In this document: positions 5,974 through 60,986 of the stretch, piece by piece
How positions within the stretch are numbered: the stretch's first letter is position 1
Layout of the letters: each line of letters begins with the position of its first letter
Source of the DNA: Candidatus Doudnabacteria bacterium
GTDB lineage: Bacteria > Patescibacteriota > Doudnabacteria > UBA920
NCBI GenBank assembly: GCA_038230955.1
Contig: JBBRMG010000002.1
Span: 1,199-65,198 of the forward strand
Length of the DNA stretch: 64,000 bases
Direction of reading: 5' to 3'
Notes under the pieces: generated by a model
What the model was told of the DNA's origin: nothing
What the model saw: only the letters and a program-made list of their open reading frames with translations
Databases searched by the model: none
Program-made: the position numbers and the translations under genes

Positions 5974-6327
5974 GCGAGTACACTTCCCCTGTGCGCACAC
6001 GGCTGTACGCATTGGCTTAATTATGTAATTTTACTTCAAAAGTACTTTGAAATTTTGATTTTGAAAAAACTCGGAGAACCAAAAACACGATTGTGCGATA
6101 TAAAAAAGGTGTAAATAAGCGGGGTTTTTCCAGCAACGTTCTTGAATACAAAAAAATGCATCCCTCCTTGCATACGCAAAAAAGGGAGGCTTTAGAATTA
6201 GCCTTATTTTCCTATGAGATTGTGCACAAATTCATTCTAGCAGTCAAGAAAAACTTGTCAAGTTTATTTCTGCTGAAAACAAGAACAAGTACATTAACCT
6301 CTTAAACAAAGGGGTTTATCGTTATAG

Positions 6328-6428
6328 CCTATCCCTGTGTGTCCTAGGAAACTAGCGCTCCATTCTCTGCGCCCTACGGGCTAGCTCATGGTCGCTTAAT
6401 AGTTTCTTTCGGACATCACAGGGATAGG
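6328..6428. repeat. long-hairpin structured element, copy A (possible ncRNA)
   Basis: Perfect 12-bp outer stem cctatccctgtg/cacagggatagg extended by tgtcc/ggaca. Inner helix gaaacta (6348-6354) / tagtttc (6400-6406). The 5' flank ttaaacaaagggg.tttatc is shared with copy B. Confidence 0.55.
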
Positions 6429-6462
6429 CACAGATAGACCCTTTAAACAAGGAGGATTTATC

Positions 6463-6564
6463 CATCTGTACTGTATACCACAAATAAACTATTGAGCGAA
6501 TAAGTTGCTAGCCGAAGGCGCAGCAACTCGAGCGATTAGTTTATGGGGGTATACAGTACAGATG
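6463..6564. repeat. long-hairpin structured element, copy B (tandem with copy A)
   Basis: Perfect 17-bp outer stem catctgtactgtatacc/ggtatacagtacagatg. Inner aaacta/tagttt helix and an agttgct/agcaact hairpin. The flanks match copy A but the outer stem sequence is completely different (compensatory change). Confidence 0.55.
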
Positions 6565-6594: not shown

Positions 6595-7149
6595 TTATTC
6601 TATAATATCCCCCATTGGGTAGCCACTGACATCAATACTCCACAGAACCATATTCTTCTTTTTATAGCGCCAGTAAGCAGCGGGGGTGGCTAATCCTCGC
6701 TTTTCTCCCTGTTTTCCTATTAAATACACAGTCCTATGATCCAAAATGTCCAGAACCAAGCTACCAGGTTTAGCCCTCTTAGTGGGTCCTTCTACTAATT
6801 GCTTATCTGCTTCATTTGCGGCCACAATCCGAGAAAGCCTATAGTTATAAGTTAAAAACTCATTCAAACTGGCAAATCCCTGCTTATACCCTTTGCCTAC
6901 CAGAAATATAGTCGGACCACTCCGCACCAAAGTACTCGGTTTATGCGGAAAAGTCGACGTAGTCTGGGCTTGGACTAGTCGCGGCAGATATAAGACTGCG
7001 GTTAGAGCTACAGAGGCGAGCCCAGCTACCAATCCCATAGCCCCAAGCACTAATCTATATCTTAATTTATTCATAAGCAAACTTGTTAATGACTTTCTCA
7101 GGATAACAAAGCATGGGTGAATAAACGCTAAAGAAAAGCTCAATTGCAA
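6595..7149 (-). CDS. hypothetical membrane-anchored protein
   Basis: 184-aa ORF with one N-terminal TM helix (LVLGAMGLVAGLASVALTAVLYL). No motif recognised. Confidence 0.5.
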   Translation of the reverse strand: MQLSFSLAFIHPCFVILRKSLTSLLMNKLRYRLVLGAMGLVAGLASVALTAVLYLPRLVQAQTTSTFPHKPSTLVRSGPTIFLVGKGYKQGFASLNEFLTYNYRLSRIVAANEADKQLVEGPTKRAKPGSLVLDILDHRTVYLIGKQGEKRGLATPAAYWRYKKKNMVLWSIDVSGYPMGDIIE

Positions 7150-16453: not shown

Positions 16454-16521
16454 CAACACCTCTTATTGAGCTGAAACCAGTCGCTAACGCTCTAATGGTT
16501 TCTCTCTCAACAAGAGGTGTT
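16454..16521. terminator. inverted repeat / bidirectional terminator between convergent genes
   Basis: caacacctcttattgag ... ctcaacaagaggtgtt followed by tttttt. Confidence 0.5.
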
Positions 16522-25737: not shown

Positions 25738-26691
25738 TCAATACGATTTGTATGTAGATACATTATAGCATGAATAAAAGGTTTTTGCAAATAAAAAAAG
25801 CGGACGTTCTCTGGTTGAGAATCGTCCGCACCCCCTTGCTATACAATCACTAGAACACCCTTTCGTGGTCTCCATTCTTGCTACTGGAAACACCAGCTTG
25901 AGAGAGAGAGTATATAAATTGTCGCCGTTGCGCAAATACGTGTCAACCCCGCGGACCACAACGCGTATCTGATTAGCCGTAACCGACACTATCCACTGCG
26001 GGTCAACTACTTGACAACAACCAATCACGATAGTCGGCTTTTCGCCGGGAAAGAATCGGCCGTTGAGTACAACCAGGTACGTATCTCGGCCCAGCGCCTG
26101 TTCAGTGACGGACTTAAGCTGTGGCCACTGCTGCTCGGCGTCGATGAATACCGGAATCGTCGTGGCCACTCTCTCGACGCGCTTTGCAGTGATGAAGTAA
26201 ACGTCATAAGACAGATTGCCGGCACTTTCAAAAGTACTGAACCCGCCGTGATGCAGGATGAACCCTAATCCCTGGCCGAAACCATTGTCGAACTGCCAGG
26301 CACTGTACTTAATCACCGACCCATTGGGTCGGGTCTCGAACACGAGCATGGTCACCGGTTCCCTTACCGTAGCAGTAGTCAGCATTAATGTATTGACGAC
26401 GTAGTCAAAAATCTGCGACGGTGGTTCACTAATAATCACCGCTGAAGCTAAACCGTCAGTAACAGCCTGCTTTTGCGAGTCGGTGACTTTAGCGGCAGAC
26501 TTATAAGCCTCGATCTGCTGCAGGGCCTGGTTATCCTCGGCCGAGCCTTTATCGATCGCGCGTCCAATGTCAGCCGGATCCACGATCCGCAACACCGGCT
26601 TCTTTGGCTGGCCATAAGTGGGCGCCACCGAAACCGCAAGAAGAATCCCAACAACGAATACCAACAACGAAAAGTTATTACTTTTTTTCAT
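25738..26691 (-). CDS. secreted hypothetical protein
   Basis: Start at MKKSNNFSLLVFVVGILLAVSVAPTYG (signal peptide) with AAGAGGGAAAAA RBS. The reading frame runs through a terminator and a promoter before its stop. Confidence 0.5.
   Translation of the reverse strand: MKKSNNFSLLVFVVGILLAVSVAPTYGQPKKPVLRIVDPADIGRAIDKGSAEDNQALQQIEAYKSAAKVTDSQKQAVTDGLASAVIISEPPSQIFDYVVNTLMLTTATVREPVTMLVFETRPNGSVIKYSAWQFDNGFGQGLGFILHHGGFSTFESAGNLSYDVYFITAKRVERVATTIPVFIDAEQQWPQLKSVTEQALGRDTYLVVLNGRFFPGEKPTIVIGCCQVVDPQWIVSVTANQIRVVVRGVDTYLRNGDNLYTLSLKLVFPVARMETTKGCSSDCIARGCGRFSTRERPLFLFAKTFYSCYNVSTYKSY
25760..25788 (-). promoter_or_regulatory. sigma70-like promoter on the minus strand (TTGCAA-17-TATAAT)
   Basis: Minus strand reads TTGCAAaaaccttttattcatgcTATAAT, immediately upstream of the 24772..25707 gene. 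Confidence 0.5.
25790..25827 (-). terminator. rho-independent terminator embedded in the 3' end of the upstream ORF
   Basis: gcggacgttctc-tggtt-gagaatcgtccgc with a T tract on the minus strand. Confidence 0.55.
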
Positions 26692-26974
26692 TTTTTCCCT
26701 CTTTTTATCTGTATCTAAACTTAGAACTACTACATTGCTTGGTTTCCCAAACAAAAAACTCTACACTTTTCGAGCCGGTCTGTTTTCCTGAATATTGGAT
26801 ATGTCTGAAAAGTACCGTGAAGGTAAAGCTATAGAGTTTTTTAATCGGGAATCCTATAAAAAGATACCTTTGTATTTATTTTTAAATACCCTCTAGTATA
26901 CTCATAAACAAGCCATTTGTCAAGAGACGAGGCGTGTTAATCAATATTTCTCCTTTAATTAAGCCAAATAATTT

Positions 26975-38900: not shown

Positions 38901-40271
38901 TCAGGTTATATACAACTTATCCAGTATCAAATCTAATTCCTGTTTTACGGTTTCATTGGTGCTGACAATGTTTTCAATTTTATCAACGCCGTGCATTACA
39001 GTTGTGTGGTCTCTTCCTCCAAAGAACTCGCCAATGGTAGGGAATGAGCTATTGAGTTCTTTTCGTGAGATGTACATTGCTACCTGTCTCGGTTTAACAT
39101 ATTCCTTACGGCGGGATTGTTTAATCAAGTCTTCAATTGTGATGTTGTAGAATTCAGCGACTGACAGAGCAATTTTTTTCAGACTAAGAACTTTCTTTTT
39201 TGCACTCATCATGTTGGCCAAAATTTGTTTTGCTCTGTCCATGGTCAGAGGAACATTTTCCATTTGTTGGAAGACAATTAGGCGATTCAATGCACCTTCT
39301 AACTCTCTTATATTACTAACAACATGCTCAGCTATAAATTCAAGGATGTCATCGGGGATATTTACCCCCCGCTTTTGTACTTTAGAATTAAGTATTGCTA
39401 ATCGTGTTTCCATATCCGGCGCTTGAACATCTGCTACCATCCCCCATTCAAACCTAGATATTAACCTTTGTTCGATTGACGTAATATCTTTTGGCTGACG
39501 ATCGGCGGTGAGGATAATCTGCTTGCCTTTGTCGCGAAGCTCATTAAATGTATGAAAGAATTCTTCTTGCGTTCCTTCTTTACCGGCGATAAACTGAATA
39601 TCATCAATTAGCAACATATCTACCGAGCGATAGATTTTCTTAAACTCATCCATTTTTTTATGGCCAATTGCATATACGTAGTCATTAGTGAATTTCTCGC
39701 TAGTGACGTACAAGACTTTACTCCGGGGATTATCGTGCATCAATTTATTGCCGACAGCGTGCATTAAGTGGGTTTTTCCTAAGCCCACGCCACCGTAAAT
39801 AAATAACGGATTGTACTGTGAACCAGGGTTTTTGCCCACTGCATTACTAGCAGCGTTGGCCAGTTCATTATGCTTGCCAATGACAAGGGTGTCGAAAACG
39901 TATTTGGGGTTTAAACTGCCAGTTGCTGCAGCTGACGTTTCTTTATGTTGATTTTGAAAATCTGTGGTCGATTGTGAGTCTACTCGTTGGCGGTCGACTT
40001 TTGGTGAAGAGCTGGGTTCAGGTCGGGCCTGGCCTACATGATATTTCACTTCTCGGATCTCTGGGCTGATTTGTTTAAGTGTTTTAAGAAGTTCATTGTG
40101 AAATTTTTCGGATATCCACTTACGGATGAACTCGCTAGGCACTCCGACAACTATGCCGTCCTCTGTTCTTTCTAGAATGGAAGTGCCTTTAAACCAGGTG
40201 TTAAAGTTGCCTCGGCTAATTGATACTTCCAGACTGCCTAATATTGATTGCCAGAGTTGTCCGTTTGTCAT
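38901..40271 (-). CDS. dnaA: chromosomal replication initiator DnaA
   Basis: NPLFIYGGVGLGKTHLMHAVGN AAA+ region and a C-terminal DNA-binding domain. Confidence 0.95.
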   Translation of the reverse strand: MTNGQLWQSILGSLEVSISRGNFNTWFKGTSILERTEDGIVVGVPSEFIRKWISEKFHNELLKTLKQISPEIREVKYHVGQARPEPSSSPKVDRQRVDSQSTTDFQNQHKETSAAATGSLNPKYVFDTLVIGKHNELANAASNAVGKNPGSQYNPLFIYGGVGLGKTHLMHAVGNKLMHDNPRSKVLYVTSEKFTNDYVYAIGHKKMDEFKKIYRSVDMLLIDDIQFIAGKEGTQEEFFHTFNELRDKGKQIILTADRQPKDITSIEQRLISRFEWGMVADVQAPDMETRLAILNSKVQKRGVNIPDDILEFIAEHVVSNIRELEGALNRLIVFQQMENVPLTMDRAKQILANMMSAKKKVLSLKKIALSVAEFYNITIEDLIKQSRRKEYVKPRQVAMYISRKELNSSFPTIGEFFGGRDHTTVMHGVDKIENIVSTNETVKQELDLILDKLYIT

Positions 40272-40336
40272 GTTTTTTTCAGGATTTCAAGTTTTATTTA
40301 AGGTTTTTTCAAGATATTCCCCATTGTAACAGGCAC

Positions 40337-40414
40337 TTATCAACATGTAAATAAAAGAAATATAACGCTTATATAAAGCCGTAAATAGTGGTTATGTGAA
40401 TATGGTGTGGAAAA
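40337..40414. other. DnaA-box-like cluster upstream of dnaA (second origin module)
   Basis: TTATCAACA (40337-40345), TTATGTGAA (40392-40400), TGTGGAAAA (40406-40414). Confidence 0.4.
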
Positions 40415-40448
40415 CTATTGAATTTTTGTGTATATCTTTTTTGAAGGA

Positions 40449-40477
40449 TTGACGGTGGCTCAATAAATTAGTATAAT
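40449..40477 (+). promoter_or_regulatory. sigma70-like promoter (TTGACG-17-TATAAT) for rpmH
   Basis: Consensus hexamers with a 17-nt spacer, ~30 nt before rpmH. Confidence 0.55.
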
Positions 40478-40506
40478 AGTCAAAGAATTGTTAATTATTG
40501 TCACTC

Positions 40507-40641
40507 ATGAAGAGAACCTACCAGCCGAAAGTAAAGCGCAGAAAAAGAGTGCACGGTTTCCGTAAACGTATGCAAACCAAGCCCGGAAGAAACGTGTTAG
40601 CCCGCCGCCGTCTGAAAGGACGCAAACGTCTAACTGTTTAA
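40507..40641 (+). CDS. rpmH: 50S ribosomal protein L34
   Basis: [44 protein letters not shown]. 44 aa, below the ORF-track cutoff. Confidence 0.95.
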
Positions 40642-40647
40642 CCCAAT

Positions 40648-40989
40648 ATGTTAAAAAAGAACTACCGCCTAACCAAAAGCAAGGATATCCAACAGACCTC
40701 CATGCGGGGGCGGAGTTTTTTTAACCCCCTTTTTGTGCTTAAATATCGAGCCGCATCTTTAGTTGAGCCGCGGTTTGGGTTTATTGTTTCAACAAAAGTA
40801 TCTAAACGGGCAGTGGAACGTAATCGCATAAAAAGGGTTGCGAGGGAACAAATCCGCTCCATTATTACTGACTTCAAAACCGGAGATTATGTTATCATTG
40901 TAAAGTCTAAAGCATCTGGGAAAACACCCACCGAATTACGGGCTTCCCTATCACAGCTTTGTCAGTCATCTAAGCTTTTGAATCTATGA
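40648..40989 (+). CDS. rnpA: ribonuclease P protein component
   Basis: FGFIVSTKVSKRAVERNRIKRVAREQIR. Confidence 0.88.
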   Translation: MLKKNYRLTKSKDIQQTSMRGRSFFNPLFVLKYRAASLVEPRFGFIVSTKVSKRAVERNRIKRVAREQIRSIITDFKTGDYVIIVKSKASGKTPTELRASLSQLCQSSKLLNL

Positions 40990-42009: not shown

Positions 42010-42474
42010 ATGACTGACTACGACAAAGCTGAACAAGTTAAATTGTTAATTCAGAACCTTCTTTCACAAGGCGGTTTTCAGGCCCAAGTTGAATATGAAG
42101 ACAGCTTGCTCAAAGGGCTAGTGTTTAACATTAGCACCCGGGAATCACGTTCCCTTATTGGTCGGCAAGGAATGACCTTGCATGCATTGGAAATTCTAGT
42201 TCATGCATTAGCGGCCCGTACTTTTAAAGGAGAACTATTTCGATTTTCTTTGGACGTCGATGATTATAAGCGTAAGCGTGAGTGGTCTCTAAAAGAGTTG
42301 GCTCGTGAGACTGCAGGAAAACTACAAGCTACAGGTAAGTCTATCGCTTTAGAACCAATGCCCAATTACGAACGCCGCATTGTTCATGCTTACTTACAAG
42401 AAAATTATCCGGAGATTGTTAGTGTCAGTGAGGGCGTGGATCCTAATAGAAAGATTGTTGTTAGTTTGAAGTAG
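42010..42474 (+). CDS. jag: Jag/KhpB RNA-binding protein (KH + R3H)
   Basis: LIGRQGMTLHALEILV (KH) and PMPNYERRIVHAYL (R3H). Confidence 0.85.
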   Translation: MTDYDKAEQVKLLIQNLLSQGGFQAQVEYEDSLLKGLVFNISTRESRSLIGRQGMTLHALEILVHALAARTFKGELFRFSLDVDDYKRKREWSLKELARETAGKLQATGKSIALEPMPNYERRIVHAYLQENYPEIVSVSEGVDPNRKIVVSLK

Positions 42475-42482
42475 GTATACAA

Positions 42483-42593
42483 AAAACACCTCCATCATTG
42501 CTTGAAACTATCGCTCGAGTTGCTGCTGCTGAACTTCGTTCATCATAGCAACTTTGTCGCTCAATAGTTTCCTTGCAACGATGGAGGTGTTTT
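42483..42593. repeat. long-hairpin structured element, copy C (possible ncRNA)
   Basis: 19-bp outer stem aaaacacctccatcattgc/gcaacgatggaggtgtttt (one mismatch). Inner gaaacta/tagtttc helix and agttgct/agcaact hairpin shared with copy B. Confidence 0.55.
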
Positions 42594-42761
42594 GTATTTC
42601 CATTTAAACTGGCAACAACCAGTGTGTTGCATAATAATACTTCAAACTGACAAGCAAGCGTTTATTTTACCCACAGTTTATAATTTATTTAACTTTCTGT
42701 GAACAGGGTTATGCTACGGTAACTGTATGCTATAATATTAATCCCAAGAAAGTTAAATTCT

Positions 42762-43010
42762 ATGACAGAAATAAATTTCCAACCAGTTTTTGATTATATT
42801 GATGCTTTAGAGACAAAGATAGACCCTTTGGTCGAAAGAATTGATGATTTGGGGCACAAATTTGACAATCTTCAATCGGCCGTAGATAAGTCGCTAACGG
42901 ATTTACGCAATATAAATGAGGAGAAAGTAATAACTGCTTATCGTACTAAGCGTTTAGAGGAATGGGCCAAGCCGGTGGGTGAAAAAGTTGAAGTTCCATT
43001 TGAAGTTTAG
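42762..43010 (+). CDS. hypothetical small coiled-coil protein
   Basis: 82 aa, preceded by an extended -10 tgctataat. Confidence 0.4.
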   Translation: MTEINFQPVFDYIDALETKIDPLVERIDDLGHKFDNLQSAVDKSLTDLRNINEEKVITAYRTKRLEEWAKPVGEKVEVPFEV

Positions 43011-43070
43011 GCAAGAATTGAAATCGATAAAATTCCCTTATTAGCGAGGGAGTTTTTGATTGGTGTGGAA

Positions 43071-60292: not shown

Positions 60293-60378
60293 GGTGCCCG
60301 AGGTGGGACTTGAACCCACATGCCTATTCGGCACGACATTTTAAGTGTCGCGAGTATAACCAATTTCTCCACTCGGGC
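60292..60378 (-). tRNA. tRNA-Leu (anticodon UAA), type II with long variable arm, CCA encoded
   Basis: GCCCGAG acceptor, anticodon stem CGACA/TGTCG with loop CTTAAAA, variable arm TGCCGAATAGGCA, T-arm GTGGG-TTCAAGT-CCCAC, then A-CCA. Confidence 0.85.
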
Positions 60379-60856
60379 TTATTGTTTTACGCTTGCCTCT
60401 ACCGCGATATGTAGGAGTTAAGCTGTGACAGTTTGGGCAAAGAATTCTTAGATTCTCCATGCGATTATCGTGACGGTCCCCATTAATATGGTCTAACTCT
60501 AGAGGAGTATATCCATCAACGGTCTTTTCCGCCCAACCGCAATGTTCACAGTATCCAGGCTTCATTCCGGCCGCTATCAGTCTGGGTTTGAGTTTGTAGC
60601 TTTGATAGTAACTATGGCTAATCAATATCTCACCAAACGTTCTTTGGGGCTTACCAACGCCACTCATTCCTTTATTCCATGCCTGACCGGTAAAATGAGT
60701 AGTCTTGATTTTATACTGAACAATATATTTCTTTAGCTGATCATAGTTACCGCCAGCTGGACGTAATTTTAACCGAACTAAAACCTGTCTATAACTTTTA
60801 CTATTATAGACTGCATTTCTTAGTTCATCAATTGTCCAAGACCTTTTTCTATTCAT
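60341..60856 (-). CDS. HNH endonuclease (free-standing, homing-endonuclease-like)
   Basis: CEHCGW...LELDHINGDRHDNRMENLRILCPNCHS zinc-finger HNH motif. The 3' end overlaps tRNA-Leu by 38 nt. Confidence 0.8.
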   Translation of the reverse strand: MNRKRSWTIDELRNAVYNSKSYRQVLVRLKLRPAGGNYDQLKKYIVQYKIKTTHFTGQAWNKGMSGVGKPQRTFGEILISHSYYQSYKLKPRLIAAGMKPGYCEHCGWAEKTVDGYTPLELDHINGDRHDNRMENLRILCPNCHSLTPTYRGRGKRKTISPSGEIGYTRDT

Positions 60857-60911: not shown

Positions 60912-60986
60912 TGGAGGTGCGAGCGGGAATCGAACCCGCGCATAGAGGTTTTGCAGACCACCGCGTTACCATTTCGCCATCGCACC
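60912..60986 (-). tRNA. tRNA-Cys (anticodon GCA), U73 discriminator, CCA encoded
   Basis: GGTGCGA acceptor, anticodon loop CTGCAAA, T-arm GCGGG-TTCGATT-CCCGC, then T-CCA. Confidence 0.8.

Follow-up and report, generated by a model that had tools for sequence, protein, structure and literature searches.

Repeat families such as REP, MITE, Correia, and ERIC consist of copies that are nearly identical over their full length. REP and BIME elements are thought to protect the 3' ends of mRNAs, and the REPs and REPINs of proteobacteria are mobilized by RAYT, a Y1 HUH transposase whose gene is usually flanked by REPs. Correia elements of Neisseria and ERIC/IRU elements of enterobacteria are MITE-like, 100-150 bp long, and co-transcribed with their neighbors; their long RNA hairpins constitute terminators, substrates of RNase III or RNase E, or modulators of stability, partly depending on their orientation. 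In phage T7, the paralogous intercistronic RNase III hairpins R0.3-R1.3 share a conserved internal loop on differing stems and provide the upstream mRNA with a protective hairpin at its 3' end. Integron attC sites keep their outermost R''/R' boxes (RYYYAAC / GTTRRRY) and vary in the interior. In CPR bacteria (Patescibacteria), which have tiny genomes and little non-coding DNA, scarcely any non-coding elements besides TIGR arrays are known to us. The RNA-guided DNA-binding system TIGR-Tas has CPR bacteria as its main cellular hosts; its stem-loop tigRNAs, found in CPR bacteria and in phages, form units at flexible positions and contain variable palindromic terminal stems, two short segments around a loop (itself a hairpin in the CPR TasR clade), and CUU at the stem base (PMC12045711; bioRxiv 10.64898/2026.09.09.750476).

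The 64-kb stretch of Candidatus Doudnabacteria DNA analyzed here (the window) contains four intergenic hairpins of 70-110 bases, named A to D, instead of the three that were counted in the original prediction. The kind of element appears to be a known one, the palindromic intergenic repeat. What is likely to be new, judging from the sequences, is a family that retains only a 28-nt core together with the pairing of its arms.

Copy C, a hairpin of 111 nt (42483-42593, plus strand), begins 9 nt past the stop codon (42474) of jag/khpB, the product of which combines R3H and KH domains (gene at 42010-42474). Its outer stem P1 (42483-42501 / 42575-42593) is formed by the arms AAAACACCTCCATCATTGC and GCAACGATGGAGGTGTTTT, complementary at 18 of 19 positions, as the original prediction had described. 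Junctions of TT and CTT link P1 to the P2 helix (GAAACTA 42504-42510 / TAGTTTC 42565-42571), which encloses loop L1 (CGCTC, 42512-42516), the inner hairpin P3 (42517-42554), and loop L2 (TCGCTCAA, 42557-42564). The inner modules noticed earlier, i.e., GAAACTA/TAGTTTC, an AGTTGCT/AGCAACT hairpin, and CTCGAG, were all found in this copy. An A-run precedes the hairpin and TTTTGTATTT follows it, so that U-tracts are present on both strands; a weak promoter-like site lies nearby on the minus strand (42703-42675). Folded as RNA, the 123-nt region around copy C reaches -53.0 kcal/mol on the plus strand and -60.8 kcal/mol on the minus strand (z = -11.2 and -10.8, respectively), while its shuffles reach about -22 to -25 kcal/mol and none of 200 matches the native fold. 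An independent assembly of run SRR19962015 (Logan) contains the identical region. In inverted form, the terminal 16 nt of jag (42458-42473, TTGTTAGTTTGAAGTA) recur at 42638-42653 (TACTTCAAACTGACAA, 15/16 identical). The two segments, 164 nt apart, bracket hairpin C asymmetrically, and by our own rough estimate some 0.15 such pairs would be expected by chance in the window.

Read in the forward orientation (plus strand for A, C, and D, minus strand for B), all copies follow a common plan: P1, a junction, P2, CGCT(C), P3, (T)CGCTY(T)AA, P2', a junction, and P1'. P1 comprises 16-19 bp of copy-specific sequence; in A-C, its base is separated from P2 by a nearly fixed distance of 21 nt (5' side) or 22-23 nt (3' side). 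The 5' junction measures 2-4 nt and the T-rich 3' junction 3-5 nt. P2 is a 7-bp helix, GAAACYA/TRGTTTC (TAAACTA in B), separated by 1-2 nt from the CGCT(C) loop, whereas P3 is a hairpin of 30-40 nt in A-C that is replaced by AA in D. The P2 helix and the CGCT(C) and (T)CGCTY(T)AA loops make up the 28-nt core common to the four copies. Whereas the stem sequences change from copy to copy, the loops between the helices show little or no variation. As the features that stay constant are the pairing of P1 and P3, free in sequence, and the core, the latter constitutes a putative recognition site. In agreement with the original prediction, the inner motifs exceed chance frequency: AAACTA-N0-3-CGCTC occurs three times in the window against 0.09 expected, the GAAACTA/TAGTTTC module twice against 0.02, and TCGCTYAATAGTTT has three exact occurrences. 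Within the window, neither the outer arms (with up to four mismatches allowed) nor the core match anything else, and a guide function of arms or core was discarded on these grounds.

Copies A and B lie upstream of rpoB. Copy A (6327-6429, plus strand) consists of P1 with one bulged T (6327-6344 / 6411-6429), P2 (6348-6354 / 6400-6406), and the loops CGCTC (6356-6360) and TCGCTTAA (6392-6399); its core is oriented against the flanking minus-strand genes. Copy B (6463-6564) bears its core on the minus strand; its P1 is a perfect stem of 17 bp (6463-6479 / 6548-6564) and the core segments are AAACTAATCGCTC (6530-6542) and TCGCTCAATAGTTT (6486-6499). The inner modules of copy C had been described as the same as those of copy B; they are indeed common to both, but the core of B is on the opposite strand and its helix reads TAAACTA/TAGTTTA. 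Copy B follows the stop codon of an upstream minus-strand ORF (6595-7149) by a few tens of nucleotides. Copies A and B are separated by 34 nt and oppositely oriented in their cores, and each is directly preceded by a 21-nt linker sequence on the plus strand (ACCTCTTAAACAAAGGGGTTT, 6297-6317, before A; ACCCTTTAAACAAGGAGGATT, 6438-6458, before B), the two linkers being direct repeats with 76% identity. The pair may therefore be regarded as a two-unit cluster with alternating orientation, the only such cluster in the family. A strong sigma-70-like promoter of rpoB (6234-6261, minus strand, TTGACA-16-TGnTAGAAT, 11/12) lies downstream of both copies on the minus strand, which places the two hairpins between the end of the upstream gene and this promoter. 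Neither A nor B is followed by a U-tract.

Copy D (16455-16521, plus strand) is a new, minimal member. It is composed of P1 (16455-16470 / 16506-16521), P2 (GAAACCA 16473-16479 / TGGTTTC 16496-16502), and a 16-nt loop, GTCGCTAACGCTCTAA, with no P3. It starts about 5 nt past the stop codon of rpsT (16449) and ends 3 nt ahead of the stop codon (16524) of a convergent RhuM/Fic gene, and TTTTTTATTT follows it. Hence the earlier statement that the copies sit between co-directional genes does not extend to D. Likewise, the outer stem of copy C, considered different from those of other copies, is distinct from those of A and B but homologous to that of D: both contain AACACCTC..ATTG / CAAC..GAGGTGTT and the same A.C mismatch. 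Elsewhere in P1, the two stems differ by coordinated changes on both arms (CATC/GATG versus TT/AA). Shared stem parts combined with coordinated differences suggest that the whole hairpin is the duplicating unit.

All four copies fold far better than their shuffles (z from -6.7 to -11.2). They were registered by hand to the structure and padded with N to keep the register in MAFFT (alignment A5). In this alignment, 96.4% of 139 cells are standard pairs and double-sided changes are seen in 24 of 42 pairs (P1 18/19, P2 2/7, P3 4/16), values to be read with the facts that the alignment was fitted to the structure, that it holds four sequences from one contig, and that P1 of C and D represents a single lineage. 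When the 3' partners are slid by 1-3 columns, just 35-48% of the cells pair and 3-5 double changes are left, and none of 500 shuffles attains the observed pairing values. In P2, compensatory changes preserve the pairing of B and D. The original prediction of one architecture with covarying outer stems is thus borne out as a real family. Template-switch correction of quasi-palindromes is an established mutational mechanism that yields covariation without selection. Arm-to-arm template switching of this type could account for part of the covariation seen here.

A covariance model built from the alignment was run unfiltered over the window and recovered only copies A (65.5 bits), B (86.1 bits), C (93.8 bits), and D (53.4 bits), followed by ordinary terminators below 20 bits; the expectation that the elements would align under a structural model was confirmed in this way. 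On the reverse strand the copies score 25-36 bits, versus 53-94 bits in the forward orientation, which indicates that the core is asymmetric. Both strands of the hairpins fold about equally well, however, so folding does not separate RNA from single-stranded DNA. Neither folding energies nor G.U counts discriminate between the strands: five cells with G.U in the forward P3 contrast with two cells with A.C in P1, the latter representing one event, and these numbers are too small to decide. At the gathering threshold, Rfam 15 reports three tRNAs and nothing else in the whole window, and a permissive search of both loci (E up to 10) returned only chance matches to miRNAs, snoRNAs, and leaders (12-22 bits versus thresholds of 47-73).

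The original description of the copies as intergenic and adjacent to core genes holds (rpoB, jag, and, for copy D, rpsT). Copies B, C, and D start some 3-24 nt past a stop codon (a few tens of nucleotides in the case of B), and their cores are co-oriented with the gene that ends there, while A is the second unit of the A/B pair and has a reversed core. Relative to transcription, core orientation is thus 3:1; relative to replication it is 2:2, the GC skew changing its sign at about 40 kb beside dnaA (negative to the left, positive to the right). The flanks of C and D (A-run/U-run) are similar to those of the canonical bidirectional terminators in the window, which have stems of 12-14 bp and loops of 3-4 nt. 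A G+C-rich stem followed by a U-tract at a gene end is present in C (GGAGGTGTTTTGTATTT) and D (GAGGTGTTTTTTATTT) and absent from A and B. With loops of 35-83 nt, far beyond the usual 3-8 nt, the hairpins are not called by a terminator scan. The reversed orientation of A and the missing U-tracts of A and B argue that termination is not the common function.

Several other features of the window were noted. The probable replication origin (40272-40650) lies about 2.2 kb from hairpin C, in the gap that separates dnaA (38901-40271, minus strand) from rnpA (40648-40989, plus strand); the GC skew switches at about 40 kb, and dnaA-dnaN-recF diverge from rpmH-like/rnpA/yidD/yidC/jag. An inverted repeat at 26741-26854 (arms of about 30 nt with 77% complementarity and a spacing of 54 nt; z of -5.4 for the fold of the minus strand) overlaps the start of an uncharacterized ORF of 338 aa (25738-26754). 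It was rejected as a family member because it has no CGCT core, scores 11 bits with the model, and folds more weakly. A 12-bp inverted repeat after copy C (42687-42698 / 42747-42758) also folds less strongly than the family members and is outside the family. The only mobile-element-like gene seen in the window encodes a free-standing HNH endonuclease of 171 aa (60341-60856, minus strand) and sits between two tRNA genes (60295-60378 and 60915-60986).

The host species is essentially a singleton, given that its exact Jag sequence is confined to an NCBI contig of 66.7 kb and a single contig from Logan, and the collections contain no close relative of it. Homologs of Jag are named as Patescibacteria, and the nearest genomes (up to 68% identity) are MAGs labeled Candidatus Doudnabacteria or 'uncultured Saccharibacteria'. 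A scan with the strict core pattern had no matches in the genome, metagenome, or viral collections. The relaxed core pattern had none in the viral collection and 18 in the metagenome collection, none of them with an outer stem or a hairpin fold; these 18 are read as chance matches, their number being close to our rough estimate from pattern degeneracy and collection size. Among 73 loci of relatives found through Jag (47 of them from CPR bacteria, 0.89 Mb), the family core is absent from the 0.89 Mb of the CPR loci according to both a regular expression and the covariance model; many long hairpins were listed in these relatives, none of which bears the core. A BLAST search of hairpin C against phage and plasmid records returned nothing relevant.

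The comparison of presence and absence among related genomes, proposed originally for the elements in general, concerns copy C only, which is missing after jag in the four closest relatives (68-81% Jag identity). There, jag is followed by a plain terminator of 12-13 bp (AACCGCTC-loop-GAGCGGTT), and a convergent PBP1A gene lies within about 33 nt of jag. Compared with the relatives, the window has about 600 extra bases after jag (cf. 42594-43070), which include hairpin C and an ORFan that encodes a coiled-coil protein of 82 aa (42762-43010). A link between the ORFan and the hairpin was dismissed, as the sole homolog of the ORFan (P0128, 50% identity), situated before rpsP in CPR contig L097, is not accompanied by a hairpin. 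With no copy in relatives or collections and a plain terminator at the orthologous site, the family represents a gain in this lineage. Its absence from about 0.9 Mb of CPR DNA and from public collections fits a young, lineage-restricted expansion.

Some hairpins of the relatives deserve mention in their own right. The post-jag terminators of three loci (L003 1001-1031, L006 10466-10494, and L005 777-809) share the stem AACCGCT(C)/(G)AGCGGTT, and in L003 the stem and loop read CGCTCAATA, the same 9-mer as at the loop/P2 junction of the window core (CGCTCAATAG). This could be due to chance or hint at the descent of the core from such a terminator. A hairpin of about 55 nt recurs some 9-10 kb downstream of jag in five related CPR genomes (L013 18805-18856, L022 19924-19983, L037 19295-19348, L041 20314-20373, and L042 19670-19728). 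It combines a terminator-like closing stem (AAAAACCCCTT / AAGGGGTTTTT or a variant) with a conserved interior, TTGCC..GCCGTCGGGC..GGCAA, has no match in Rfam, and possibly represents a small RNA not described so far, or else a more elaborate kind of terminator. Between yebC and ruvC of a related MAG (L047 15626-15712), there is a hairpin with a perfect 29-bp stem; its apex (GAGTTGCT...TAGCAA) resembles P3 of B and C, probably by coincidence, whereas P2 and the CGCT loops are missing. Hairpins around a TCGGATGCA(C/T)TCGGG(T)ATGA-like motif are present in several related CPR genomes (L019 8232-8306, L026 14713-14844, L031 333-401, and L033 18045-18130) and may represent another repeat or operator family of the clade.

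Our preferred explanation, held tentatively with a probability of about 0.45, is that copies A-D are paralogs of a lineage-specific palindromic repeat that forms a co-transcribed hairpin at 3' ends and is bound at its core by a trans-acting protein. The repeat would duplicate as a whole hairpin, and each copy would be transcribed as the tail of the upstream gene and adopt its long hairpin fold. The outer stem and the U-tract of C and D would constitute an intrinsic terminator, while A and B would more likely form a 3'-end protection or processing structure and, in addition, a barrier that separates the rpoB promoter from the upstream gene. The core is probably recognized by the trans-acting protein, which would either spread the element or bind or cleave the RNA. 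We infer that the hairpins are transcribed, act in termination or stabilization, and recruit a binding factor. Among the three functions offered originally, a REP-like element fits best (positions after stop codons, mixed orientation, the pair with linkers, absence from relatives), whereas nothing speaks in favor of a recombination or insulator site; the third, a small RNA, is considered below.

The main rival is a purely selfish DNA element, such as a REPIN or a non-autonomous IS-like element, which would form its hairpin in single-stranded DNA. A transposase of the HUH/RAYT or another type, encoded elsewhere in the genome, would bind and cleave its core, and any effect on RNA would be incidental. 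The mixed orientation of the cores (3:1 with respect to transcription, 2:2 with respect to replication from an origin placed at about 40 kb by GC skew), the equal folding of both strands, the restriction to one lineage with copy C missing at the orthologous site, the alternating A/B pair with its linker repeat, and the copying of whole hairpins indicated by C and D are all in line with such an element. On the other hand, a scan of approximately 50 window ORFs revealed no transposase, RAYT, integrase, or reverse transcriptase, neither target-site duplications nor conserved termini are present, and all four copies occupy non-random positions at the ends of transcription units. Moreover, the copies are too diverged outside the core for recent activity, yet their pairing is fully kept, a combination that needs either selection or arm-to-arm correction. 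The purely selfish interpretation thus appears rather unlikely; as a DNA-level selfish element is compatible with the preferred explanation, the two are not exclusive. More doubtful still is the possibility that the hairpins are independent small-RNA genes, as raised in the original prediction, or protein-sponge RNAs, each a stand-alone transcript, with pyrimidine-rich loops (CGCUC / UCGCUCAA) that would bind a protein (e.g., of the KH-domain type) or pair with GAGCG targets. Conserved single-stranded loops within covarying helices are a usual signature of functional RNA, the asymmetric core scores much better in the forward orientation, and copy C has both its two U-tracts and the weak minus-strand promoter-like site. 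Nevertheless, B, C, and D follow the stop codons too closely for a promoter to fit in between on the forward strand, and the loop complement TTGAGCGA is not enriched in the window (four sites versus 1.95 expected, two of which are the elements themselves), so the option retains neither promoter nor target support. It also conflicts with the lack of any Rfam family match even in the permissive search, and conservation in no relative would be unusual for a regulatory RNA beside core genes.

Lower again in our estimation is an undescribed class of structured RNA in CPR bacteria, with an invariant, pseudo-symmetric core on freely evolving stems and a dedicated, possibly dimeric protein, or else a core that flips. 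In the former case, the core could consist of two CGCU loops around a short helix and, with its 'spacer' positions fixed, be evolutionarily related to stem-loop tigRNAs or represent their precursor. In the latter, the hairpin core could flip between the arms, which would explain an inverted core inside the otherwise direct A/B duplication. It is very improbable that the hairpins are themselves orphan stem-loop tigRNAs of a TIGR-Tas system whose tas gene lies outside the window, even though they share with them the CPR host, a variable palindromic terminal stem (P1), a hairpin in the middle (P3), and a layout similar to that of the published unit (PMC12045711; bioRxiv 10.64898/2026.09.09.750476). 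The two segments between the stems, about 15-20 nt long (15-18 and 18-22 nt), are close in size to a box, a 10-nt spacer, and a box, and in copy C the base of the stem contains CUU and the sequence runs CUU-17 nt-UG ... CUU-19 nt-UG. However, a tas gene, which encodes a Nop-domain protein, lies beside or contains the units of such arrays, and Pfam detects no Nop-domain or Tas-like protein among about 50 window ORFs; four of the ORFs that belong to no family have no TasR or TasH match among PDB sequences. Real tigRNA spacers are variable, single-stranded, 8-12 nt long, and flanked by box C/D motifs, whereas the would-be spacers here are the most conserved, invariant part, pair with each other to form the 7-bp P2, and show compensatory changes in B and D. 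The CUU/UG boxes (box C/D) are missing in A, in B (5' side), and in D, the copies do not form an array but are dispersed among housekeeping genes across 36 kb, and the outer arms and core have no counterparts elsewhere in the window; membership in this class was therefore rejected. Finally, C and D have outer stems similar to the canonical terminators of the window, but we attach hardly any credence to the notion that the family consists of ordinary terminators or look-alike chance inverted repeats. Core motifs occur 3-4 times versus 0.02-0.09 expected, model scores of 53-94 bits compare with less than 20 bits for real terminators, loops of 35-83 nt with the 3-4 nt of other terminators in the window, and A and B have no U-tract.

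A hairpin family situated where core transcription units (rpoB, rpsT, jag) end would offer a handle on how transcripts end, are processed, and are stabilized in CPR bacteria. The gene that mobilizes the family, if one exists, would bear on the spread of repeats in reduced genomes, and the hairpins themselves are a cautionary look-alike for motif-based finders of TIGR arrays. With four copies on one metagenome-assembled contig, the practical importance is modest for now.

Among the described systems, integron attC sites have the reverse layout: in the present family, the outside varies and the inside is conserved. With no R-box consensus in the copies and no integrase in the window, this class was rejected. 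The T7 hairpins R0.3-R1.3 are similar as a set of paralogous hairpins with conserved internal loops on differing stems, and in the present family the distance from the base of P1 to P2 is nearly constant in A-C; there is no sequence similarity, and the present copies are located on a cellular chromosome and in both orientations. Correia and ERIC elements correspond in length and in the long hairpin, and the roles of the latter could be transferred to the present copies by analogy only; they differ in their conserved terminal inverted repeats, target-site duplications, and high identity, none of which is seen here. Upon inspection, the copy termini differ from one another, and no copy is flanked by direct repeats, contrary to what characterizes MITEs.

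The REP/BIME/REPIN elements are likewise intergenic and mostly located just past genes, and their imperfect palindromes fold into hairpins as RNA or as single-stranded DNA. REPINs have a similar overall size of about 100 nt, and the A/B cluster recalls BIMEs in its alternating orientation and conserved linkers, although it is a single cluster. REP copies, on the contrary, are near-identical over their full length and have a GTAG-type head; in the present family, 18 of the 19 pair positions of the outer stem vary among A, B, and C/D, no GTAG-type head is present, and four copies are known with no RAYT seen among about 50 window ORFs. No such repeat family was found described for CPR bacteria in the literature. 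With just 28 nt in common, the family is atypical in comparison with REP, MITE, Correia, and ERIC. It nonetheless most resembles the palindromic intergenic repeats of other bacteria (REP/BIME, Correia, ERIC).
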